From the NCBI GenBank assembly GCA_009844085.1, contig VYCF01000007.1:1746-65745 (forward strand): a stretch of 64,000 nt of DNA, written 5' to 3'. Of this stretch, positions 4,161 through 52,353 are shown in pieces. Numbering within the stretch: the first letter of the stretch is position 1; each line of letters starts with the position of its first letter. The translations under genes were made by a program, and so were the position numbers. The notes below the pieces were generated by a model, which was not told the origin of the DNA, did not search any database, and saw only the letters and a program-made list of their open reading frames with translations. The stretch comes from Gammaproteobacteria bacterium. GTDB lineage: Bacteria; Pseudomonadota; Gammaproteobacteria; Pseudomonadales; Pseudohongiellaceae.

Positions 4161-5084
4161 TTGTCGATGACAATTCATCTCGCGCGCGACCGCCGGCTGG
4201 CGGCCCTGTTGTTCCTGCTTTCGCTGGCGCCATTCGCCGGCGCGGCCGAATACGTCATGGATCCGGAATGGCCCAAGCCGCTGCCGGAAGACATTGAATG
4301 GGGACAGGTGCCCAACGTCACCATCGATCATGAAGGCTATATCTATGCCTTCCACCGCTCCGAGCCGCCGGTGCTGAAATTCGATCCCGAAGGCAATCTG
4401 GTCGACTCCTGGGGCGGCGAGTGGATACAACGGCCCCATGGCTTCCGCGTGACGCCGGACGGCAACATATGGGCGACGGATTATCACCGGCAACTGGGCA
4501 ACACGATCTCCCTGTTCGACACCAAGGGCAATCTGCTCAAGCGTCTCGGGGCGGCCGGATTTACGGGCGCGGGTCCCAATACTTTCGACGGGCCGGCCGA
4601 TGTCGTGCAAGCCGGGAACGGAGACTTCTTCGTGGCCGACGGTCACTGGAACAACCGTATAGTCAAGTTCGACAGTCAAGGCCGTTACCTCATGGAATGG
4701 GGTAAGCGGGGTTCGGGCCCCGGCGAATTCAATCTGCCGCATACCCTGGTGATCGACCAGCGCGGGCGCCTGCTCGTCGGCGACCGGGGCAATGAGCGAA
4801 TCCAGATATTCGACCAGGATGGCAACTACATCACCGAGTGGGATCAGTTCGGCTGGCCCAGCGGCATGTTCATCGACGGGAACGACATCCTTTATGTAGC
4901 CGACTACCAGAGTCTGCGTGGCGTAACCTATGGCAGCGCCGAAACCGGCGAGGTCATGGGCTTCATCGAAGGCTCCGAACCCGAGGGCGTCGTGGTCGAC
5001 GCCGACGGCAACGTCTACACCGGCGAGGTGACCGGCGGAGAAGGCGGCGACGGCATGATTATTCGCAAGTTCATCCGGCAGTAA
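4161..5084 (+). CDS. Secreted NHL-repeat beta-propeller protein (peptidylglycine-amidating-lyase-like fold)
   Basis: Signal peptide (LLFLLSLAPFAGAAE). Repeated NHL-like units (PHGFRVTPDGNIWATD, PADVVQAGNGDFFVADGHWNNRIVKFD, PHTLVIDQRGRLLVGDRGNERIQIFD, PSGMFIDGNDILYVADY). The start is TTG 4161 or ATG 4167. Confidence 0.7.
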   Translation: MSMTIHLARDRRLAALLFLLSLAPFAGAAEYVMDPEWPKPLPEDIEWGQVPNVTIDHEGYIYAFHRSEPPVLKFDPEGNLVDSWGGEWIQRPHGFRVTPDGNIWATDYHRQLGNTISLFDTKGNLLKRLGAAGFTGAGPNTFDGPADVVQAGNGDFFVADGHWNNRIVKFDSQGRYLMEWGKRGSGPGEFNLPHTLVIDQRGRLLVGDRGNERIQIFDQDGNYITEWDQFGWPSGMFIDGNDILYVADYQSLRGVTYGSAETGEVMGFIEGSEPEGVVVDADGNVYTGEVTGGEGGDGMIIRKFIRQ

Positions 5085-41759: not shown

Positions 41760-42668
41760 CTACTTGTCTTCCTCGAGTATTTCCCGAAGAGAAGTATCCG
41801 CCGCCTCGACGATGCGGGACAATTCGCCGCGAAGTCCTTCATCCATCGGCTGGAAGGGAGGTCTGACCGGCCCGCCTGGACGGCCGAACAATTCACAGGC
41901 GTACTTGACGCTTTGCAGGAACTTGCCGCCTTTCTCAAGGCAGATCATGAGCGGCAGCAAGGCGGAAGTCATTCTGCGGCCTTTATCGAAATCTCCTTCC
42001 AGCACGCAGGTCTCGTAAAGGCGCACGGCCTCGCGGGGAAAGAAGTTGGCCACCACCGACACCCAACTGCGCGCGCCCCAGGCGAAAAACTCGAGCACAA
42101 GGTCTTCCGAGCCGGCGCTGAGCTGGAGTTCGGGATACTCGCGCGCCAGCATCTGGATGCGCTCGACCTCGCCGCTCGATTCCTTGATCGCCTGGAAATT
42201 GGCGCTTCCGGCGATGCGGTCGAGGAAGTCCCGCTCCATGTTGACGCCGGTCCGGCCGGGATAGTTGTAGAGGATGATCGGCAAGCCGGCGGCGCGGTCG
42301 ATCTGCAGGCAATGCCAGGCGAGTTCTTCCTGGCCCGGCAGTCCGTAAGGCGGCGCCGCGACAAGCAGCGCATCGGCGCCTGCGTCCCGCGCCGCCGCCG
42401 CCAACTCGTAGCAGCGTTCGACGAGCAGGTCATTGACGCCGGCGACCACGGGGAGCCGTCCCGCGGCGCGCTCCACCGCGAATCTGAACTGCTCGATCCG
42501 CTCTTCCTGCGTCAGGGAGAAGAATTCGCCCGTCGAGCCGCCGACGATTATGGCGTGAACGCCATTTTCCGCCTGCCAGTCTATGATTCGCCCGTAAGCA
42601 TCGAAGTCGATCGACAGATCGTCCCTGAACGGCGTGATGATTGGCGTGTAGATCCCTTCGAATTGCAT
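41760..42668 (-). CDS. Dihydrodipicolinate synthase/N-acetylneuraminate lyase family protein; candidate pyrroline-4-hydroxy-2-carboxylate deaminase
   Basis: ATG 42666-42668 preceded by GAGGGGG. GIYTPIITPF, VGGSTGEFFSLT, LYNYPGRTG. The Schiff-base Lys context AIKESSG is present. Confidence 0.8.
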   Translation of the reverse strand: MQFEGIYTPIITPFRDDLSIDFDAYGRIIDWQAENGVHAIIVGGSTGEFFSLTQEERIEQFRFAVERAAGRLPVVAGVNDLLVERCYELAAAARDAGADALLVAAPPYGLPGQEELAWHCLQIDRAAGLPIILYNYPGRTGVNMERDFLDRIAGSANFQAIKESSGEVERIQMLAREYPELQLSAGSEDLVLEFFAWGARSWVSVVANFFPREAVRLYETCVLEGDFDKGRRMTSALLPLMICLEKGGKFLQSVKYACELFGRPGGPVRPPFQPMDEGLRGELSRIVEAADTSLREILEEDK

Positions 42669-42822
42669 GATTCCCCCTCGGCGGCGGGCAATTCCCGCCA
42701 AGGTCGAAGTATAAGATTTATTGCATCCATTGGCAGCGCTGCTTGACCGGATTGGGACCTGGCCGCATAATGAACCGTTGACTTGGCGGGCTCGTCCGCG
42801 TTGGGCGGCTGGCATAGAGCAT

Positions 42823-43125
42823 ATGCGAAACGAAATCAGTGTAGCAGCCAGAGACCGGTTCCGGTCATTGCCGCTGACTGCCGTTATTTGCCTGCTGCTG
42901 CTGTTCGTGCAAGGCGCGGCGCTTGCCCACAGCCACGAAAACGATCCGCAAGTTCGCTACGACTGCGACATCTGCCTCAAAATCGGTTCAAGCACCGACG
43001 TCATCGCGACGGGCCATGTCGACACTTCTGTTTCCCCGGTTCGGCATGAATGGCTCGACGTCAGAGTTGAGTTGCCGTTCCTGCCGCTGCTCGACATTCG
43101 CTCCAGAGCGCCTCCCCAGGCCTGA
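42823..43125 (+). CDS. Small membrane-anchored CxxC protein (DUF2946-like), copy 1
   Basis: 100 aa, with one N-terminal TM segment followed by His residues (LLLLFVQGAALAHSHEN), a CDIC motif and a C-terminal RAPPQA. A paralog with the same layout precedes the second receptor. Confidence 0.55.
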   Translation: MRNEISVAARDRFRSLPLTAVICLLLLFVQGAALAHSHENDPQVRYDCDICLKIGSSTDVIATGHVDTSVSPVRHEWLDVRVELPFLPLLDIRSRAPPQA

Positions 43126-43241
43126 TAAACAGTTTTCAGAACCCGTCCCGGCGTGTCCCGCCGCGCCCAGTTGCGACAGGCCCCGGCAACCTGACCGAGA
43201 CGGCACACCGGTTTATCAGTTATCAATCCCTGGGGAATGCA

Positions 43242-45545
43242 ATGAACAGTCAACGCAAGAAACTATCAGCCGCCATCAGTCTGGCGCTGGCCGTCGGCTA
43301 TACCGGCGGCGCGCTCGCGCAAGAAGAAGCCGACCACGTTGAAGATCAGATCGTGGAAATCGTGGTAACCGCGGCGTTCCAGGAATCGGAGGCGGATACG
43401 GCAATGCCAGTGGGCGTACTGTCCGGCGAGGCGTTGCGGGAAAAAATCGGCAACAGTCTCGGGGATACGCTGAAGAACGAAATCGGCATTGCAAATGCCT
43501 CTTTCGGACCCGGAGTGGGGCATCCCGTTATTCGCGGTCAATCCGGGAACCGCGTGAAAATCCTGCAAAATGGAGTCGGTGTTACCGATGCGTCTAGCAT
43601 CAGCGCCGACCATCCCATCGCTGTCAGCACGTCGCTGGCAGAACGATTGGAAGTTATTCGCGGCCCCTCGTCCCTGCTTTATGGCAGCGGCGCCATCGGC
43701 GGCGTCGTCAATGTCATCGACAACCGGATTCCCGAGAGCTTGCCGGAAGAGCCGGCTTTCGTCGTACAGCAAAGCCACAACACCGTAGGTTCCCAGGACG
43801 ATACCCTGATCCGGGTCGACGGCTCGACGGGCAACGTGGCTTTCCATCTCGACGCGTTCAGGAGCAGCAACGACAAAGTTGAGATCAGCGGCTACGCCAT
43901 CGACGAGGAAGCCGTCGAAGTGCTTGAGGAACTCATTCACGAACACCTTGAAGAACATCATGACGAAGAAGATCACCACGACGAAGAAGATCACCACGAC
44001 GAAGACGAACATCACGACGAAGACGAGCACGGACACGAAGAAGAGGAACTGGAAAACACCAATGGCTTCATAGGAAATTCCGATGCCGAGTCCAACGGCG
44101 GCAGTTTCGGATTTTCGTTCGTCGGCGATCGCGGATTCATCGGCTTTTCGGCAAGCGAGGTCGAGGACAATTTCGGCATCCCTCTCGGTGCGCATGTCCA
44201 TGCGCATGAAGAAGAGGAACATCACGACGAAGAAGAGGAGCATCACGACGAGGAAGAGCACCACGACGAAGAGGAACACGAAGACGAGGAGAGCCACGGC
44301 CACGCGGAAGAAGTTGAATTCATCCGCGCCGACTCGAAAAAGACTCGCTACGACATAAAGGGCGAACTACGGTTCGACGAAGGTTGGATCGAGAGCGTTC
44401 GGGCCACGGCGGGATTCAGCGACTACTTGCTTAACGAAGTCGAAGTGTTCGAAGACGGCGACCGTGCGGTGGGAACGAGTTTTTCCAACGAAGGCTCCGA
44501 AGGCCGCATCACCTTGACGCATGTTCCGGTCGGAAACTGGACCGGCGTTTGGGGTTTGCAATACACGGATACGGTATTCAGCGCAACCGGCGAGGAGGCA
44601 TTTATTCCGCAGTCCGACATCAATGCGCTGGGAATCTTCGGCGTGGAGCGATACTCGGGCGCGAACTGGACCGGCGAAATCGGTATTCGATTCGAGGACA
44701 ACAGCGTCGACCCGAACGGCCGCTGCGAGCAAAGCGGAAATACCGCGAGCGTCAGCGGCAGTGTGCTCTACGATGTGGGCAACGACGCGAATCTGTTGTT
44801 CTCGGCGGCCCGCTCGGAACGGGCGCCCACGGTCGAAGAACTCTTTTCCAACGTATCCTCGGACACCTGCGCTAGCTATGTCGATTACGAAGATCTGGTG
44901 CTGCATGCATCGAGTTCCTTGCTTGAGATTGGCAATCCATTGCTGGAAGAAGAGACTTCCAGCAATCTGGAGTTCGGGTATCGCCGTTTCGGGGGCAACT
45001 TCACCGGCGAGTTCAGCGCCTACCACAACCAGATCAATAATTACATTTATCTCGATCTCACGGGCGAGGAATTCGAAGGGCAGCGGCTTGCCTCCTATCT
45101 CGCCAGAGATGCAAGCTTTACTGGTATTGAAGGCGAGGTTTCCTTCAACGTCATGGAAGGCGAGGATTCGTCTCTGGCCCTCGGCGTATTCGGCGATATG
45201 GTGAACGCCGAATTCGATTCCGGCGGTTACGTCCCGCGCATCCCGGCTTCCAAGATCGGCGCCGAACTGCGCTGGTTCGGGGATAACTGGAGCATTCACC
45301 TGCACGCCACTCGCGTAAACGAGCAGGAAGACGTGGCCGAACTCGAGTTGCCCACCGACGGTTACACCTTGCTTTCGCTTTACGCCGACTACCATTTCGA
45401 CGTAGGCGAGGACAGCAGCCTTGAGGTGTTCCTACGCGGAGAAAATCTGCTCGATGAGGAAATCCGCAATCACGCGTCCTTCCTGAAGAACTACGCGCCC
45501 GAACCGGGCCGCGGCTTGATGGTCGGAGTCCGATTTGAGTACTGA
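43242..45545 (+). CDS. TonB-dependent receptor with two His/Asp/Glu-rich inserts (ZnuD-like), copy 1
   Basis: Signal peptide and plug (PVIRGQSGNRVKILQNGVGVTD, LEVIRGPSSLLYGSGAIGGVVNVI). Inserts HEHLEEHHDEEDHHDEEDHHDEDEHHDEDEHGHEEEE and HVHAHEEEEHHDEEEEHHDEEEHHDEEEHEDEESHGH. The barrel ends in ...GVRFEY. Confidence 0.9.
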   Translation: MNSQRKKLSAAISLALAVGYTGGALAQEEADHVEDQIVEIVVTAAFQESEADTAMPVGVLSGEALREKIGNSLGDTLKNEIGIANASFGPGVGHPVIRGQSGNRVKILQNGVGVTDASSISADHPIAVSTSLAERLEVIRGPSSLLYGSGAIGGVVNVIDNRIPESLPEEPAFVVQQSHNTVGSQDDTLIRVDGSTGNVAFHLDAFRSSNDKVEISGYAIDEEAVEVLEELIHEHLEEHHDEEDHHDEEDHHDEDEHHDEDEHGHEEEELENTNGFIGNSDAESNGGSFGFSFVGDRGFIGFSASEVEDNFGIPLGAHVHAHEEEEHHDEEEEHHDEEEHHDEEEHEDEESHGHAEEVEFIRADSKKTRYDIKGELRFDEGWIESVRATAGFSDYLLNEVEVFEDGDRAVGTSFSNEGSEGRITLTHVPVGNWTGVWGLQYTDTVFSATGEEAFIPQSDINALGIFGVERYSGANWTGEIGIRFEDNSVDPNGRCEQSGNTASVSGSVLYDVGNDANLLFSAARSERAPTVEELFSNVSSDTCASYVDYEDLVLHASSSLLEIGNPLLEEETSSNLEFGYRRFGGNFTGEFSAYHNQINNYIYLDLTGEEFEGQRLASYLARDASFTGIEGEVSFNVMEGEDSSLALGVFGDMVNAEFDSGGYVPRIPASKIGAELRWFGDNWSIHLHATRVNEQEDVAELELPTDGYTLLSLYADYHFDVGEDSSLEVFLRGENLLDEEIRNHASFLKNYAPEPGRGLMVGVRFEY

Positions 45546-45569
45546 TTCGGCAAGCTTTAGAGCCTTTGA

Positions 45570-45601
45570 GGAACAGTCCCGCCGTGCGGCGGGACTGTTC
45601 C
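45570..45601 (+). terminator. GC-rich hairpin after receptor copy 1 (no clear T-tract)
   Basis: GGAACAGTCCCGCC-GTGC-GGCGGGACTGTTCC. Its core is homologous to the hairpin after copy 2. Confidence 0.45.
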
Positions 45602-45611
45602 TGAGTCTGGC

Positions 45612-45902
45612 ATGACGATTGATCAATTTCTAGCCCCGGCGCGCGTAGTCCGCGTCTGCCTGCTGCTGATTGTCGCCCAGGTCTCCCTGCTGGGGCACAT
45701 TGACGAAATTGACGAATCGGAATCGGTTGAGGAGTGCGAACTTTGCCTGCTGCTCAACGCTTGTGACGATTTCATCGAGGCCGGGTCCGCAAGAAAACCC
45801 ATTCCTGCTGCGTCGCCTCAACAGCTTGAACATTCGATTGAATCTCCTTCCCTTTCATTGCCTGTCCCGCAGGCGAGAGGCCCTCCCCAGGCCCGAACTT
45901 GA
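45612..45902 (+). CDS. Small membrane-anchored CxxC protein (DUF2946-like), copy 2
   Basis: 96 aa, with an N-terminal TM segment followed by His (LLLIVAQVSLLGHIDE), a CELC motif and a C-terminal RGPPQA. Confidence 0.55.
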   Translation: MTIDQFLAPARVVRVCLLLIVAQVSLLGHIDEIDESESVEECELCLLLNACDDFIEAGSARKPIPAASPQQLEHSIESPSLSLPVPQARGPPQART

Positions 45903-46025
45903 CAAGCAGTTTACAGTTTTAAGATTACCCGTCCCGGCATCCCGCCAGACGCCGGTTGCCGGCGTCGGCAGCCGGACCGAGACGGCAAATTCCTGTTAGT
46001 CAGTTATCAAATTCTGGGGAATGCA

Positions 46026-48350
46026 ATGAACATCAAGTGCAAGATTCCGGCAATACAACGGAAGAAATTACCAGCCGCCATCGGTTTGGCGCTGGCGGTC
46101 GGCTGTGCCGGCGGCGCGTTCGCGCAAGAAAGTGCCGGCCAAAATGAAGATCGAATTACAGAAATCGTAGTCACCTCGCTGTTCCAGGAATCGGAGGCGG
46201 AAACGGCAATGCCGGTTGGCGTTCTCGCCGGAGATGCGTTGCGGGAGCATATCGGCAACAGTCTCGGCGATACGCTCAAGAACGAAATCGGCGTTGCGAG
46301 CGCCTCGTTCGGCACTGGGGTCGGACTTCCGGTGATCCGCGGTCAGTCCGCCAACCGCGTCAAGGTCCTGCAAAACGGCGTCGGCGTTACCGATGTTTCC
46401 AATGCCAGTCCCGACCATGCCAATGCCGTGAACGTGGCGCTGGCGGAACGGCTGGAAGTCATTCGCGGGCCGTCGACCCTGCTGTATGGCAGCAGCGCTA
46501 TCGGCGGCGTCGTCAACGTCATCGACAACCGGATTCCGGAAAGTCTGCCGGAAGACATGGGCTTCGTAGTCCAGCAAATGCACAATACCGTGAATTCCCA
46601 GGACGAAACCCTGATCCACATCGATGGTGCGGTGGGCAACGTGGCTTTTCATCTCGATGCTTACCGGAGCCGCAACGAAAATGTGGAGATCGGCGGCTAC
46701 GCCATGGACGAGGAAGCCATGGAGGCCCTTGAGGAACTGTTTCACGAACACTTCGAAGAAGGGCATCACGACGACGACCACGACGACCACGACGACCACG
46801 ACGACCACGATGATCATGACCATCATGACGACCATGACGAGCGCGAAGGACCAGAAAACACCTTCGGCTACATCGGCAATTCCGATGGCGAGTCTAGCGG
46901 CGGCAGTTTCGGCTTTTCCTTCATTGGCGACAACGGCTTTTTCGGTGTTTCCGCAAGCGAGGTCGAAAAGAACTACGGTCTCCCGCTCGGCGTCCATGCC
47001 CATGTCCATGACCATGGCGAAGAGGAGCATGAAGGGGAGCACGACGAGCACGAGCACGAGGACGAACACGATCACGAGGAAGATGACCACGAGGACGAAC
47101 ACGGCCATGGGGGGGAAGCGGTTGAATTCGTTCGCCTCGACATGAAAAAGAGCCGCTACGATTTCAAGAGCGAATATCGGTTCGACAACGGCTTCATCGA
47201 GAGCGTGCGCGCCACGATGGGCATCACCGATTACGTTCACGACGAGATCGAGTTCTTCGAAGACGGCGACACCCATGTGGGCACCCGCTATAGTAACGAA
47301 GGCAACGAGGGCCGCATAACCTTGACTCATGCCCCCGTGGGCAACTGGACCGGAGTCTGGGGCATGCAGTTCGCGGATACCGTCTTCAGCGCCATCGGCG
47401 AAGAAGCCTTCGTTCCGCAATCCGACCTCAACTCCATCGGTCTTTTCGCGGTCGAGCGCTATAGCGCGGGCAACTGGACCGGCGAAGTCGGCATTCACAT
47501 GGAAGACAACAGGGTCGATCCCAATGGCCGCTGCGAGTTCAACACCAACGCCACGAGCCTGAGCGGCATGGTGCTGTACGATGTGGGCGATGACGCCAAT
47601 CTGTTGTTCGGCGCCGCCCGGTCCCAAAGGGCGCCGGCGGTTGAAGAACTCTATTCCAACGTTTCCGAGCTAACTTGCGCGCCCGAGGACGACTATGAAA
47701 ATCTCGTCTTCCACGCCGGCACGAACACGCTGGATATCGGTAATCCGCTGCTTGAAGCGGAGACTTCCAACAACCTGGAGTTCGGCTATCGTCGACATGG
47801 CGGCAGCTTCACCGGCGAGTTCAACGCCTATTACAATCAGATCGACGACTACATTTTTCTCGATCTGACGGGGGAGTTTGAAGAACAGACTCTCGCCCGG
47901 TATCTGCAGCGGGATGCGCGCTTTACCGGCATCGAAGGCGAGGTTTTCTTCAATGTCATGGAAGGCGGGGATTCGTCCCTGTCGCTCGGCGTGTTCGGCG
48001 ATATGGTGAATGCCGAATTCGATACCGGCGGCTATGTCCCGCGCATCCCGGCATCAAGGCTCGGCGCCGAACTGCGCTGGTCCGGAAATGACTGGAGCGT
48101 CAATCTGCGCGCCACTCGGGTAAACGAGCAGGAAGACGTGGCCGAACTCGAGTTGCCCACCGACGGATACACCCTGCTTTCTCTCTATGCCGACTATCGT
48201 ATCGACGTAGGCGAGGACAGCAGCCTCGAGGTGTTCCTGCGCGGAGAAAATCTGCTCGATGAGGAAATCCGCAATCACGTGTCCCTGTTAAAGAACTACG
48301 CGCCCGAGCCGGGCCGCGGCGTGATTGCTGGAGTTCGTTTCGAATATTGA
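46026..48350 (+). CDS. TonB-dependent receptor with two His/Asp/Glu-rich inserts (ZnuD-like), copy 2
   Basis: Paralog of 43242-45545, sharing long identical blocks. Inserts HEHFEEGHHDDDHDDHDDHDDHDDHDHHDDHDE and HAHVHDHGEEEHEGEHDEHEHEDEHDHEEDDHEDEHGHG. Confidence 0.9.
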   Translation: MNIKCKIPAIQRKKLPAAIGLALAVGCAGGAFAQESAGQNEDRITEIVVTSLFQESEAETAMPVGVLAGDALREHIGNSLGDTLKNEIGVASASFGTGVGLPVIRGQSANRVKVLQNGVGVTDVSNASPDHANAVNVALAERLEVIRGPSTLLYGSSAIGGVVNVIDNRIPESLPEDMGFVVQQMHNTVNSQDETLIHIDGAVGNVAFHLDAYRSRNENVEIGGYAMDEEAMEALEELFHEHFEEGHHDDDHDDHDDHDDHDDHDHHDDHDEREGPENTFGYIGNSDGESSGGSFGFSFIGDNGFFGVSASEVEKNYGLPLGVHAHVHDHGEEEHEGEHDEHEHEDEHDHEEDDHEDEHGHGGEAVEFVRLDMKKSRYDFKSEYRFDNGFIESVRATMGITDYVHDEIEFFEDGDTHVGTRYSNEGNEGRITLTHAPVGNWTGVWGMQFADTVFSAIGEEAFVPQSDLNSIGLFAVERYSAGNWTGEVGIHMEDNRVDPNGRCEFNTNATSLSGMVLYDVGDDANLLFGAARSQRAPAVEELYSNVSELTCAPEDDYENLVFHAGTNTLDIGNPLLEAETSNNLEFGYRRHGGSFTGEFNAYYNQIDDYIFLDLTGEFEEQTLARYLQRDARFTGIEGEVFFNVMEGGDSSLSLGVFGDMVNAEFDTGGYVPRIPASRLGAELRWSGNDWSVNLRATRVNEQEDVAELELPTDGYTLLSLYADYRIDVGEDSSLEVFLRGENLLDEEIRNHVSLLKNYAPEPGRGVIAGVRFEY

Positions 48351-48386
48351 TCCCGTCCAAGCCCATGGACGGCTCAGCGGTATGAG

Positions 48387-48420
48387 AAAAGTCCCGCTTG
48401 ACGGCGGGACTTTTCATTTG
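48387..48420 (+). terminator. Rho-independent terminator after receptor copy 2
   Basis: AAAAGTCCCGC-TTGACG-GCGGGACTTTT followed by CATTT. Confidence 0.65.
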
Positions 48421-48434
48421 GGCTTGAGGCCAAA

Positions 48435-49304
48435 ATGCAGTATGTTTCCCCCGACATGATTTCTCTGTTCGCGCTCAAGATCATCGCCGCGCTTTCGATT
48501 CTCGCGGTGGGTATTCTCGGCGGCATCATTCCCCTGCTGGCCGCGCGGCTGCGGGCAAGCCAGCGGTTCTTTTCCCTCGGCAATGCCCTGGCCGGGGGAA
48601 TATTCCTCGGCGTCGGCTTTACTCATCTGCTGCCCGAAGCCGGGGAAATGCTCGCCGAATTTACCGATTATCCACTGGCTCCGCTATTGGCCGCGGCGGG
48701 GATTGCGATTCTATTATGGATCGACCGGGTCTATTTCGAGTCGATGGGGCCCGCGGAAGGGGAAGAATCCGGCGAACAGCGGCGGCCCCTGTATCCCATG
48801 ATCATGCTCGCCGCGCTGTCGATTCATTCGGTCATCACCGGAATCGCCCTCGGCCTGGAGCCGGAAGTAGCCGCTTCGCTGCTGGTAATGACGGGAATTC
48901 TGGCGCACAAGGGTTCGGCTTCCTTCGCGCTGATGGTCAGCGCCCACGCCGCCGGCCTGAATGCTCCCAATCTGCGCCTGATCCTCGCTGTATTCGTGCT
49001 GATGACTCCGCTCGGAATCCTGTTCGGCACGACGGTGTCCAGCCTGATGCAAGGGGAAAGCGCCGAACTCGTGGAAGGCGTTTTCAATGCCCTGGCCGCG
49101 GGAACTTTCATCTATATCGCCATCATGGACGTGATCGGCGGAGAGATGGGGCGCATCGAAGACCGCATGGCGCGTTTCGTCAGCAGCGCGCTGGTGGGAA
49201 GCGACGATGTCGACATGCCGGTTCGGGACCGCGACCGCCCGCTCAAGTTCCTGCTCGTTCTGATCGGCCTCGGCAGCATGGCGGTACTGGGAATTTGGGT
49301 CTAG
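48435..49304 (+). CDS. ZIP-family divalent-metal (zinc) transporter
   Basis: Eight TM helices. ZIP signature helices (SIHSVITGIALG, ILAHKGSASFAL). Confidence 0.8.
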   Translation: MQYVSPDMISLFALKIIAALSILAVGILGGIIPLLAARLRASQRFFSLGNALAGGIFLGVGFTHLLPEAGEMLAEFTDYPLAPLLAAAGIAILLWIDRVYFESMGPAEGEESGEQRRPLYPMIMLAALSIHSVITGIALGLEPEVAASLLVMTGILAHKGSASFALMVSAHAAGLNAPNLRLILAVFVLMTPLGILFGTTVSSLMQGESAELVEGVFNALAAGTFIYIAIMDVIGGEMGRIEDRMARFVSSALVGSDDVDMPVRDRDRPLKFLLVLIGLGSMAVLGIWV

Positions 49305-49334
49305 GCCGACAGGCGATTCAAGGGGGATTGGCGC

Positions 49335-49865
49335 ATGCTTTACAAACTCGGCGATGCCGAAGTCGAACTTGCCGGCGATGACTGGTTCGTCGCAGAGACT
49401 GCCATTGTTCTGGGCAGAGTGCGGCTCGAAAACAACGCCAGCGTCTGGTATGGCGCGGTGCTTCGCGGCGATAACGATCTGATCACCGTCGGCGAAAATT
49501 CCAACGTACAGGATTTGTCGGTATTGCATACCGACCCGGGCATTCCACTGACCATCGGCCGCAACGTAACCGTGGGGCACAAGGTGATGTTGCATGGCTG
49601 CACGATCGGCGACAATTCCCTCATCGGCATCAATTCGGTCGTGCTCAACGGCGCGAAAATCGGCAGCGACTGCCTGATCGGCGCCAACAGCCTGGTAACC
49701 GAAGGCAAACAGATTCCCGACGGCTCGCTCGCCCTCGGCTCGCCGGTGCGGGTAGTGCGGCAATTAACCGACGAAGAAAAGGCCATGCTGCGCGAAAGCG
49801 CCGACATCTACGTTCGCAACTTCAAGCGCTTCAAACGGGACCTGAAACCCGATCCCCGGACCTGA
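49335..49865 (+). CDS. Gamma-class carbonic anhydrase-like hexapeptide-repeat protein (YrdA/PaaY family)
   Basis: Left-handed beta-helix repeats. Zn-ligand His contexts ([21 protein letters not shown]). Confidence 0.85.
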
Positions 49866-49880
49866 TTCCCCGGCCGCCGC

Positions 49881-50867
49881 TCAGGGCGCGACTTCCATGC
49901 CGTCGCGGCCGACGATGATCGGGCCGTCAAAGTAATCGCTCATGCCCTGGATGAAAGCCGCTTCCGCGGCATCGGTCGGTGCAATCGAAGGGAACAGGTG
50001 GGTGAGCGCCAGCTTTTTCACGCCGGCTTCCTGGGCCATCCGCGCCAGTGCGAGCGTTTCGGCGTGGTATTCCATGCCTTCCTCGATCATTTCGAGTTGC
50101 CGCGTATTGCCCGCGGCTCTAGCCAGCGCTAACGCCGGACTGAACATGGCGGCGTTTTCTGCCTCGCTGACGAGCAGATCGGCGCCTTCGGCGCCGGCAG
50201 CGTAGTCCGGGCAGACCCGCGTGTCGCCCGAGATGACTACGATCTGGTCCAGATACTCGAAGCGATAACCTACGGCGGGCTCGATGGGTTCGTGGCAGAC
50301 CGGAAACATCGTTACCGTCAGGCCGTCTTCATCGAGCACGACCCCGGGTTCGTGCTCGGTCACCGTGGGATTCATCACCGCTTCGCTGAATTTCTCGCCG
50401 TGGTGGGTGATTCGATATTCGAGATCGAGCCGGTAGGTGGAGGCGATTCCAGCCACGATTTCAACCGCGCCTGGCGGCCCATGCACGGGAATGGAACGAT
50501 CGACGCCGGCAACGCCGAAATTGAGCAATATCTCGCCGAGCCCGATGAAGTGGTCGGAATGGTAATGTGTGTAGAAAATGGCGTTGAGATCGAAAATGCC
50601 GGCCTGATCGAGCGTAACGACGCAATTGCGGCCGGTATCGACGAGGAACACGCGGTCTCCCGCGATAACCGCAGTGCAGGCAGTGCCTCGCTGCGGATTC
50701 GGAATCGGCACGCCGGTGCCAAGCAAAATCACGGAAAGGCCTGCTTCCGGGTCCAGGCTGCGCGCCTGCGGCCGCCCCTGGGCGACGGCGATTCCCATCG
50801 ACACGACCAGGACGATTGCGACGAATGCCAGGACGGTTTTTCTCCTCACTCCAGGTTCTCCAGTCAT
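49881..50867 (-). CDS. Secreted MBL-fold metallo-hydrolase
   Basis: ATG 50865-50867 preceded by GGAGG. Signal peptide. HYHSDH zinc motif, plus downstream His/Asp ligands. Confidence 0.8.
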   Translation of the reverse strand: MTGEPGVRRKTVLAFVAIVLVVSMGIAVAQGRPQARSLDPEAGLSVILLGTGVPIPNPQRGTACTAVIAGDRVFLVDTGRNCVVTLDQAGIFDLNAIFYTHYHSDHFIGLGEILLNFGVAGVDRSIPVHGPPGAVEIVAGIASTYRLDLEYRITHHGEKFSEAVMNPTVTEHEPGVVLDEDGLTVTMFPVCHEPIEPAVGYRFEYLDQIVVISGDTRVCPDYAAGAEGADLLVSEAENAAMFSPALALARAAGNTRQLEMIEEGMEYHAETLALARMAQEAGVKKLALTHLFPSIAPTDAAEAAFIQGMSDYFDGPIIVGRDGMEVAP

Positions 50868-50880
50868 GGGGCCTCCACGC

Positions 50881-52353
50881 TCAACTGAGCCGCAAGGCGC
50901 CATCATCGATCGGGGATTCCTCGATCAGTTTGCGGTCCAGCAGGTAGTCCTGGGTGTTGCGCCAGGGAGCCTGGATCTTCTGTTTCGGGAACAGGTGCAT
51001 GGCGCGCTGCATGTAGCCGGGATTGAAGTCGTCGATCCAGTCGAGTTCGGGCAGGTCCGATTCTTCCTCGCGCAACACGGGTTCGCATTGCCTGGCGCCC
51101 CTGGCGTCCATGGTATTGAGCAACTTGCAGAACCAGCGTGAATTCAGGTCGGCGCGCAAGGTCCAGGAGGCGTTGACGTAGCCGAAGGTGTAAGCCAAAT
51201 TCGGCACGCCCGACAGCATCATGCCGTGGTAATTGAACGAGCGCGTCGGCTCGATCTTCTCGCCGTCGCGGTAGAGGCTGACGCCGCCGAACATCTGCAA
51301 GTTCAGGCCGGTGGCGGTGACGAGTATGTCGGCATCAACGGTTTCGCCGTCTCGCATCCTCACGCCCGTTTCGGTGATGCTTTCGATCCGGCCGGTGACG
51401 ACATCGGCCTTGCCTTCCCGGATCGCCAGGAACAGGTCGTTGTCGGGCACCAGGCACAGGCGCTGGGTCCAGGGTTCGTAATTCGGCGTGAAATGTTTCT
51501 CCACGTCATAATCTTCGCCGAGCACCTTGCGTACGCGCTTGATCAGGTAGTCCCTGATCTTCTCGGGCTTCTCCCGCGAGCGCCGGTACACCATGTCCTG
51601 CAGGCGCACGAAGCGCCAGCGATTGATCTTGCCGGCCCAGCGCGCAGGCAGCAGCGCATTGAGCAGGGCCGCGATGCGGTCCTTGCCGGGACGGGAAATG
51701 ATGTAGCTCGGCGAGCGCTGGATCATGGTCACCTTCGCGGCCTTTTGCACCAGTGCCGGAATGAGCGTAACCGCGGTGGCGCCGCTGCCGATGACCGCCA
51801 TGCGCTTGCCCGAATAATCCAGCTCTTCCGGCCAATGTTGCGGATGAACGATCGAACCGCCGAATTGCTCAAGGCCGGGAAGATCGGGCGTATAGCCTTT
51901 TTCGTAGTCGTAATAGCCGCAGCACATGAACAGGAAGCGCGCCCTGATTTCAGACTCGCGGTCCTCGCCGTCAAGCACCGATGCGGTCCAGACGGCGGAT
52001 TCGCTGTCCCAGGCAGCCGAGGTCACTCGGTGTCCGAATCGGATACGATCGCGAACGCCATATTCGTCGACCGTTTCCTGTAAGTAGTCGCGAATGGCGT
52101 CAGCGTCGGAAATCACTTTCGGATTGGTCCAGGGCTTGAAACTGAACCCGAAGGTGTACATGTCGCTGTCGGAGCGAATTCCCGGAAAGCGGAACAGATC
52201 CCAGGTGCCGCCGATCTCGTCCCGGGCTTCGAGAATGGCGTAACTCTTGCCAGGGCATTCGAGCTCAAGATGGCAAGCGGCGCTGATGCCGGAAATCCCG
52301 GCGCCGACAATCAGGACTTCAAGCAGGGAGGAGTCAGGTGCAGCAGCGTTCAT
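50881..52353 (-). CDS. Flavin-containing / Baeyer-Villiger-type monooxygenase
   Basis: FAD fold VLIVGAGISGISAA, GGTW, the FxGxxxHxxxW-type motif FGGSIVHPQHWP, and the NADP fold VIGSGATAV. Confidence 0.85.
   Translation of the reverse strand: MNAAAPDSSLLEVLIVGAGISGISAACHLELECPGKSYAILEARDEIGGTWDLFRFPGIRSDSDMYTFGFSFKPWTNPKVISDADAIRDYLQETVDEYGVRDRIRFGHRVTSAAWDSESAVWTASVLDGEDRESEIRARFLFMCCGYYDYEKGYTPDLPGLEQFGGSIVHPQHWPEELDYSGKRMAVIGSGATAVTLIPALVQKAAKVTMIQRSPSYIISRPGKDRIAALLNALLPARWAGKINRWRFVRLQDMVYRRSREKPEKIRDYLIKRVRKVLGEDYDVEKHFTPNYEPWTQRLCLVPDNDLFLAIREGKADVVTGRIESITETGVRMRDGETVDADILVTATGLNLQMFGGVSLYRDGEKIEPTRSFNYHGMMLSGVPNLAYTFGYVNASWTLRADLNSRWFCKLLNTMDARGARQCEPVLREEESDLPELDWIDDFNPGYMQRAMHLFPKQKIQAPWRNTQDYLLDRKLIEESPIDDGALRLS

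Follow-up and report, generated by a model that had tools for sequence, protein, structure and literature searches.

The Pseudohongiellaceae contig VYCF01000007.1 (assembly GCA_009844085.1) carries, within the 64,000-nucleotide stretch analysed here (the window), a block of genes in which two small open reading frames (ORFs) each precede a gene for a ZnuD-like TonB-dependent receptor. These small ORFs, hereafter uORF1 and uORF2, are probably metal-sensing, ribosome-stalling leader peptides of the CruR/CutF type, each of which would switch its own zinc-type receptor. The metal sensed would, on balance, be Zn(II). The initial annotation of this DNA described two consecutive units of ~2.8 kb, each with an ORF of ~100 codons and a TonB-dependent receptor gene, and this layout holds. 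It had taken the small ORF for a stable partner protein of the receptor. The layout fits an arrest-peptide leader instead.

Metal-sensing arrest peptides have so far been shown for copper only, in the form of CruR and CutF. The CruR (DUF2946) family is defined by an export signal, a CXXC motif, a RAPP motif three residues from the end, a spacing of 45 ± 2 residues between the two motifs, the first position in an operon and a TonB receptor gene downstream, beyond a long intergenic region (Roy et al. 2022, PMC9426467). At low copper the ribosome stalls at RAPP and Rho is kept off the mRNA; copper, acting through CXXC, relieves the stall (PMC9426467). RAPP arrest with the two proline codons in the P and A sites has been demonstrated in vitro (Fujiwara et al. 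2025, PMC12992588), both RAPP and RGPP have proved robust as arrest cores in experiments, and small ORFs ending in them are enriched 5' of TonB receptor genes (PMC12992588). In CutF, the stalled ribosome melts a stem that shields the next gene's Shine-Dalgarno (SD) sequence (bioRxiv 10.1101/2025.02.05.636593).

Both small ORFs are built to this plan. uORF1 (42823-43125, + strand) encodes a 100-residue leader peptide that contains AHSHENDPQVRYDCDIC and ends RSRAPPQA before the stop codon. Its parts are an N-terminal signal or transmembrane segment ending in ALA, the motif HSHEND, the cysteine motif CDIC (C48 and C51), a 43-residue spacer, RAPP (codons 43105-43116), Q-A and the stop. uORF2 (45612-45902, + strand) encodes a 96-residue leader peptide that contains GHIDEIDESESVEECELC and ends ARGPPQART before its stop; it has a transmembrane or signal segment, GHIDEIDE, CELC, again a 43-residue spacer, RGPP (codons 45876-45887) and Q-A-R-T. 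The transmembrane segment, the His-containing start, CDIC/CELC and the R(A/G)PP tail had all been noted in the initial annotation, and each of them stands. uORF2 is internal to the transcription unit, yet it is the first gene of its own module, and the distances from the two small ORFs to their receptor genes are long (116 and 123 nt), as in the definition of CruR. In relatives uORF1 begins ATG-GAG-CAT-ATG (MEHM...); here the first ATG has become ATA and the start lies three codons later, at 42823 (42814-42825).

The same architecture recurs in a family of 69 copies, drawn from this genome, its Pseudohongiella relatives and a few other marine Gammaproteobacteria. CxxC and RxPP stand 43 residues apart in 62 of the 69 and 44 in the other 7, and the sequence of this spacer is poorly conserved. 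The motif is RAPP in 37 members, RSPP in 11, RGPP in 8 and RDPP in 4, followed by two residues in 43 of 60 members (range 1–4) and then the stop codon. Just nine alignment positions are invariant: Q30 in the hydrophobic segment, H36, C48, C51, L52, D59, R95, P97 and P98. The export signal, or N-in transmembrane segment, can be read directly from the sequence as an R/K-rich start and ~20 hydrophobic residues that end in A-L-A or L-L-G before the His motif. A receptor-sized ORF (mostly ~600–810 residues) lies 3' of the small ORF in 60 of the 69 cases, at a median intergenic distance of 117 nt. Homologues form a few dozen clusters among billions of proteins, none with a domain assignment or an informative name, and neither small ORF of the window has a match in Pfam or NCBIfam.

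The leader RNAs are predicted to connect the end of each small ORF with the start of translation of its receptor. Leader 1 (43126-43241, + strand, 116 nt) forms a long hairpin with helices P1, P2 and P3, and leader 2 (45903-46025, + strand, 123 nt) adopts the same fold. In leader 1 the outer helix P1 pairs UCCCCAGG (43113-43120) with CCUGGGGA (43229-43236), the SD of the receptor gene; in leader 2 it pairs 45884-45891 with 46013-46020, the SD of receptor B. The 5' arm of P1 consists of the last base of the first proline codon, the second proline codon, the glutamine codon and one more base. P1 is present in the minimum-free-energy and centroid folds of both leaders, and RNAalifold on 12 Pseudohongiella leaders returns P1 as the outer helix with P2 and P3 inside it. 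In this alignment 91.7% of cells are paired, compared with 37–50% when partners are slid, and the covariation score is 0.253 as against 0.18 in shuffles, of which none in 500 reached 0.253. There are 17 double-change cells, mostly in P2 and P3, with two in P1 (A-U to G-C).

Cognate duplexes between the end of a small ORF and its SD average -11.2 kcal/mol and non-cognate ones -9.7 kcal/mol, and none of 5000 permutations reached the cognate mean. Complementarity between tail codons and SD region persists in distant members, where both have changed in sequence. Our first SD-pairing statistic was too high, an effect of folding a fragment that stopped at the two arms. We repeated the folding in wider context (200-nt and 40-nt flanks) and added a window-rank control, and the signal was weakened but not removed. 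In the three units of this genome (two in the window and one on another contig, described below) 6.4, 8.0 and 9.5 of ~12 SD pairs go to the arrest zone in a 350–390-nt context, and across 49 units of the family the median fraction is 0.35, where 0.08 is expected. A stem that sequesters the SD and that a stalled ribosome would melt is thus found in silico, although not universally across the family. The fold matches no Rfam family at E≤1 (window positions 42000-51000).

These features suggest a mechanism. The short exported peptide would arrest its own translation at the C-terminal R(A/G)PP, the first proline codon then occupying the P site and the second the A site. With 43 residues between the arrest point and the sensor, H-x-H-[DE]-x-D...D-C-x-x-C, the latter would have just emerged from the ribosome tunnel, where we expect it to meet cytoplasmic metal. 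Because the Pro-Pro-Gln codons pair with the receptor SD, a ribosome stalled at RAPP would expose that SD: it would cover UCCCCAGG, the 5' arm of P1, leaving CCUGGGGA free, and the ZnuD-like receptor would be translated. Metal binding by the nascent peptide would relieve the stall, as proposed for CruR; the ribosome would then terminate two to four codons further on, P1 would re-form and receptor synthesis would end. Rho-dependent termination in the untranslated leader may contribute.

The proposed switch shares much with CruR of Bordetella pertussis (Bp2923, PF11162), encoded 5' of the copper receptor CrtA/BfrG (PMC9426467; PMC12992588; PMC12914433): the export signal, CxxC, RAPP near the stop codon, a spacer of fixed length (~45 residues in CruR and 43 here), the operon-first position with a long intergenic region before a TonB-dependent receptor gene, and the logic of an uptake system that is expected to be on when the ribosome is stalled at low metal. 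It also differs in several ways. The leaders here are missed by Pfam and are ~30–45 residues shorter; their sensor is without Met and has an additional H-x-H-[DE]-x-D block; they precede a ZnuD-type receptor and a ZIP gene rather than CrtA and PepSY_TM; the predicted output is SD unmasking, instead of or besides Rho termination; and the metal is probably zinc, with one transcription unit carrying two tandem leader-receptor units. The DUF2946-like CutF of Rhodobacter capsulatus, encoded 5' of cutO (PMC9973294; bioRxiv 10.1101/2025.02.05.636593), resembles the present leaders in that a stall at a C-terminal proline motif opens the stem around the next gene's ribosome-binding site. However, CutF has CxxxC and PPP, and copper induces its stalling, turning on a detoxifying oxidase. 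The target here is an importer, and metal should therefore relieve stalling. In addition, the arrest codons themselves form the 5' arm of the helix in our leaders, unlike those of CutF. SecM-secA, MifM-yidC2 and ApdA/ApdP (PMC7897499; PMC10951233) likewise have a RAPP/RAGP-type motif near the C-terminus of a small exported protein and a stall that opens an SD stem; the genes downstream there encode Sec or YidC components rather than TonB-dependent receptors, and the likely release signal here is metal binding, not pulling by the translocon.

Why zinc? The sensor region, H-S-H-[DE]-x-D-x5-D-C-[ED]-I-C, is rich in His, Asp and Glu, and Met makes up 0.4% of it, as against 3.9% in a sample of true DUF2946 proteins in which MxM/HxM copper-type stretches occur. 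The surrounding genes point the same way. The locus had been annotated as one for metal acquisition, and the ZnuD-type receptors and the synteny of ZIP and the gamma-carbonic-anhydrase-like gene in relatives bear this out: these two genes follow the last receptor of the locus in genomes with one unit and in those with a tandem pair, wherever the fetched sequence extends far enough. We conclude that this is a divalent-metal uptake locus, probably for zinc. The ZIP family (ZupT-like) inner-membrane divalent-metal importer gene (48435-49304, +; PF02535, 124.5 bits against a gathering score of 35.1) follows the receptors here, whereas a PepSY_TM partner follows CrtA/BfrG. The hexapeptide/gamma-carbonic-anhydrase-like gene (49335-49865, +) lies 30 nt 3' of ZIP. 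In Pseudomonas aeruginosa a gamma-carbonic anhydrase gene, PA5540, is induced by zinc limitation (PMC4542158), and by analogy the gene here, first described as belonging to a zinc-enzyme family, may instead encode a zinc-sparing paralogue.

Other loci add to this picture. A third leader in the same genome, outside the window on contig C69 (~27373-17000, - strand), reads HSHGSHDSHD...CNIC...RSRSPPRS before its stop codon. It heads a TonB receptor gene, a CobN-like gene (1319 residues), a membrane protein gene, an ExbB-like gene and a DUF2149 gene. This CobN-ExbB-DUF2149 set resembles PA1922-25 of P. aeruginosa, which is induced >100-fold by zinc depletion and belongs to a Zur-regulated cluster (PMC4542158). 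In relatives, the same leader family also heads clusters of a receptor, an ABC-2 ATPase and a permease, and these resemble the Zur-regulated znuK/znuGHI genes of Caulobacter (PMC4176598). In the published surveys of CruR/CutF-like proteins consulted here, copper and some nickel/cobalt or Czc-type efflux contexts are named, and zinc, ZnuD and Zur go unmentioned. Separately, a MerC-family gene lies just 5' of the third leader, on the same strand.

The initial annotation had expected a regulon with Zur or Fur operators. Our operator search found none. There is no Zur-box-like 17-mer (≤3 mismatches) in the 3.43-Mb genome, nor in 57 leader-bearing loci, and an AT-rich stretch 5' of the promoter fits the Fur-box consensus at 8 of 19 positions; we dropped the Zur/Fur regulon. 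The genome has one Fur-family gene, clearly Fur-like, as does most of the genus. The receptors here thus seem to be controlled without a Zur repressor.

A congeneric genome may offer the counterpart. Pseudohongiella G006, which lacks the leader family, has a ZnuD-like receptor gene (361 bits) with no leader ORF (locus L110, 820-5060). This gene sits behind a canonical Zur box, ATGTTATAATGTAACAT, with two boxes at 828 and 846, and ~1.3 kb downstream is a gene whose best NCBIfam match is Zur (4563-5060), with a box of its own at 4455. The G006 receptor looks like a Zur-controlled counterpart of those in the window, a natural swap of control device within one genus. If so, the two species would form a natural pair, close in descent and with the same receptor type, one using a Zur box and the other a leader peptide. 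Across the genus, absence of the small ORF set against possession of a second Fur-family gene gives 3/8 versus 5/29 genomes, which is suggestive but not significant.

Taken at its boldest, the evidence would describe the first zinc-responsive arrest peptides: nascent leaders that serve as the zinc sensor for outer-membrane uptake in Zur-less Pseudohongiella, with H-x-H...CxxC read at the tunnel exit and one copy for each cluster with a zinc receptor (ZnuD-, CobN- or ABC-2-type). We put this forward tentatively, as a possibility that falls short of an even expectation. If true, a set of translational switches acting in cis has taken the place of a transcription-factor regulon, and the principle of the copper-sensing leaders would extend to the classical metal of Zur. 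The system is small, with ~420 nt of leader ORF and leader RNA, and it bears on how RAPP arrest can be released when a nascent chain binds metal at the tunnel exit. Because such leader ORFs are unannotated or 'hypothetical' and are missed by Pfam, the zinc regulons of marine Gammaproteobacteria are under-called.

A number of points weigh against zinc-sensing leader peptides. CxxC is a classic copper ligand, and the tested relatives of the leader family are copper sensors only. CruR and CutF differ in the direction of regulation, which is unreadable from sequence. The genome is a draft of 77 contigs (97% complete), so a missed Zur gene is not absolutely excludable. On the RNA side, 4 of the 8 P1 pairs never vary in the close set, the fold z-scores are modest (-1.3 for leader 1 and -2.8 for leader 2), 15 of 49 units have almost no predicted pairing between SD and arrest zone, and the window-rank control puts the arrest window first among possible SD partners in only 11 of 49. 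Part of P1 could be incidental, since proline-proline codons (CCN CCN) by their nature complement purine-rich SD sequences.

The link to DUF2946 also has two sides. The Pfam model (PF11162, gathering score 23.7 bits) does not match either small ORF even at E≤10, and a six-frame search of the whole genome at that threshold misses all three leaders and returns two noise matches elsewhere. By contrast, hhalign, run with 61 members of the leader family and 23 true DUF2946 proteins taken from a sample extracted from 200 Pseudomonadota genomes, gives a probability of 93% (E 3.5e-7) over 56 columns from CxxC to RAPP, a match dominated by the two short motifs and their spacing. The true DUF2946 proteins have a CxxC-RAPP spacing of 43–48 and the same type of tail. 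The resemblance to DUF2946 first remarked on is in line with the profile comparison and the shared architecture, and the Pfam model stays silent. We treat the small ORFs as a short, unrecognised sister branch of DUF2946 that lies outside the Pfam family. The accompanying remark that the role of DUF2946 is unknown needs correcting: CruR and CutF are characterised RAPP arrest-peptide leaders (PMC9426467; PMC9973294; bioRxiv 10.1101/2025.02.05.636593; PMC12992588).

The alternative that survives best keeps the arrest peptides and gives them another output or another input; we regard it as doubtful. Expression could be set mainly by Rho-dependent termination in the leader, with the SD helix secondary. 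CruR does act through Rho, and leader 1 is C-rich (C 0.34, G 0.26). The C>G skew is no feature of the family (mean C 0.24, G 0.25), and we rejected a C-rich, G-poor rut site as a family character of the leaders. The SD pairing, conserved with covariation, argues against an output through Rho only. As to the input, the peptides could sense periplasmic metal or the pulling of the Sec translocon, as CutF, SecM and ApdP do: CutF requires its signal peptide and senses periplasmic copper, and a cleavable-looking signal peptide is conserved in our leader family. Yet with 43 residues between CxxC and the arrest point, the sensor would hardly be across SecYEG at arrest, judging by the length of the tunnel.

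Copper as the metal sensed is unlikely, and what probability zinc and copper leave falls to other metals or to several. In its specific form this alternative holds that the leaders are ordinary copper-sensing orthologues of CruR, that the locus imports copper or a copper chelate and that the His-rich loops of the receptors bind Cu(II); we judge it improbable. It has the CxxC of the leaders in its favour, this being the copper-sensing motif of CruR, as well as the remote relationship of the family to DUF2946 and a matter of general coordination chemistry, namely that His-rich peptides also bind Cu(II) and Ni(II). Against it, the receptors are ZnuD-type and not OprC-type (the TIGR01778 model scores only 55 bits on them), unlike the receptors that follow true DUF2946 genes in 30 sampled loci. 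The neighbours are ZIP, CobN-like and ABC-2 genes, and PepSY_TM, PCuAC, Sco, YcnI and CopC are not among them; the sensor region is without Met; and the congeneric orthologue of the receptor stands behind a Zur box.

That the small ORFs encode stable proteins working with the receptor (a metallochaperone in the periplasm or anchored in the membrane, a plug or TonB-box partner, or a thiol-disulfide protein), with the RxPP tail and leader fold incidental, is very improbable: the export signal and the His/Cys ligands are conserved, the small ORF always adjoins a receptor gene and the first annotation saw it so, but invariance is limited to nine positions, the spacer is conserved in length and not in sequence, the paralogous small ORFs are 29% identical where their receptors are 72% identical, an invariant R-x-P-P lies 2–4 residues from the stop codon when RAPP-type motifs are otherwise avoided in proteomes (PMC12992588), RNA covariation couples the last codons of the ORF to the SD of the next gene, and CruR and CutF are themselves undetectable as proteins in vivo.

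The receptors belong to the ZnuD type, as initially proposed. Receptor A (43242-45545, +) has 767 residues and receptor B (46026-48350, +) 774, and for both the best NCBIfam model is ZnuD (NF038289; 363.9 and 377.5 bits), the next model scoring ~120 bits; neither reaches the curated ZnuD cut-off of 950 bits. Among solved structures, Neisseria ZnuD (4RDR) is the only full-length relative (E 2.5e-55), and its stretch HDDDNAHAHTH aligns under the second of two long inserts rich in His, Asp and Glu. Both inserts, described before, are real in both receptors, and the contrast drawn between HDEE chemistry in receptor A and HDD chemistry in receptor B is borne out for insert 1. An AlphaFold2 model of receptor B places them between barrel strands 3/4 and 5/6. 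This model was built from a 16-row alignment, has low confidence (mean pLDDT 56) and lacks the plug, and we used it for strand order only. By standard TonB-receptor topology the inserts would be extracellular loops L2 (~43917-44036 in A, ~46722-46841 in B) and L3 (~44187-44297 in A, ~46989-47123 in B).

A His/Asp-rich extracellular loop at L3 is shared with N. meningitidis ZnuD (4RDR) and with Zur-regulated homologues such as P. aeruginosa PA0781 (PMC4542158). The receptors here differ from ZnuD in scoring so far under its cut-off and in having two very long loops, L2 and L3, encoded in both genes by short tandem DNA repeats; from its Zur-regulated homologues they differ in having a leader-peptide switch instead of a Zur box. 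The repeats (43917-44297 and 46722-47123) are imperfect, with units of 9, 18, 21 and 33–36 nt, and among relatives the loops vary in length and in their number of His, from 4 to 14 per 40 residues. This suggests that the His/Asp/Glu loops grow and shrink by slippage. In one relative (G026; loci L015/L030) the receptor A frame, counted from the first ATG that follows the leader ORF, closes after only 234 codons, and the B copy is intact. This A copy may have decayed into a pseudogene, or the repeat-coding region may have been misassembled.

The whole block appears to be a single transcript. A strong sigma-70-like promoter, TTGACC-17 nt-CATAAT (42743-42771, +; 10 of 12 consensus matches), is the sole good promoter match 5' of it, and 12 relatives keep the TTGACC and GATAAT/CATAAT hexamers although the DNA further 5' and the upstream neighbour differ. 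No palindromic operator or Zur box is present at this promoter. There is no promoter match 5' of uORF2, where the hairpin after receptor A leaves no room for one, and none 5' of ZIP. The hairpin after receptor A (45569-45602, +) is GC-rich and has no T-run, and uORF2 starts 10 nt further on; it is a probable RNA-stabilising or partial-stop hairpin. A second hairpin (48386-48419, +), 16 nt 5' of the ZIP start codon, shares with it the core GTCCCGC...GGCGGGAC, and only this one is followed by a T-run, which makes it terminator-like. We read it directly from the sequence; the output of the automated promoter and terminator scan does not contain it. The simplest reading is a transcript uORF1-znuD_A-uORF2-znuD_B-(ZIP-gammaCA) from one conserved, operator-free promoter, with a leader switch for each receptor and with read-through into ZIP that may form part of it. 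An MBL-fold gene (49881-50906) lies on the opposite strand, convergent with this unit. It had been counted among the metal-regulated genes, and nothing links it to the operon. ZIP and the gamma-carbonic-anhydrase-like gene, by contrast, are confirmed 3' of the two units.

The two units arose by an old duplication. Tandem pairs occur in at least six related genomes, which means that the duplication predates the species. DNA homology between the units (43129-45546 against 45913-48351, 76.7%) takes in both leaders and excludes the small ORFs. Third-codon-position identity of the receptor genes is ~0.8–0.88 in the last ~130 and first ~50 codons, compared with ~0.45–0.6 between. In the barrel core (codons 361–630) the A and B copies form separate clades; in the final 137 codons the B clade takes in the A copies of this genome and its closest relatives. 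The A–B distance within this genome is 0.12 in the 3' segment, as against 0.24–0.26 in three relatives, whose third-position divergence there (0.47–0.50) is as high as elsewhere in the gene. The low divergence seen here is thus not a result of constraint. Two relatives have an A copy that is near to B along most of the gene. These data support recurrent gene conversion, by which the paralogues have swapped 3' ends and, in some relatives, the greater part of the gene. Conversion had been suggested before, and the clade shift and distances favour it; the data do not bear out 'ongoing', as the tract has since diverged by 12%. Nor are the last 80 codons 'almost identical': their identity is 88.9%, with longest identical runs of 47 and 40 nt.

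Some members of the leader family depart from the arrangement in the window. In an uncultured Pseudohongiella (L022, OZ220475.1, 5520-6310) the leader alone has been duplicated in tandem: two leader-type ORFs, each with RAPPRA at its end, stand 480 nt apart and have no receptor gene between them. Weaker members (L099-L109), with CxxC, 43–45 residues and RAPP or RGPP, occur in 12 of 321 sampled genera in other gammaproteobacterial families, and a ZnuD-like receptor follows in one of the seven inspected. Finally, L009, L010, L011 and many Pseudohongiella loci (L036, L038, L052-L055) have a single leader-receptor unit in a conserved smpB...bamE-fur neighbourhood, 3–5 kb from fur, and in three of them the unit comes after a DUF7990 gene and an ArsA/ParA-like ATPase gene. 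Most of the genus has this arrangement, as do other marine Gammaproteobacteria, and the tandem, ZIP-adjacent locus occupies a different genomic site.

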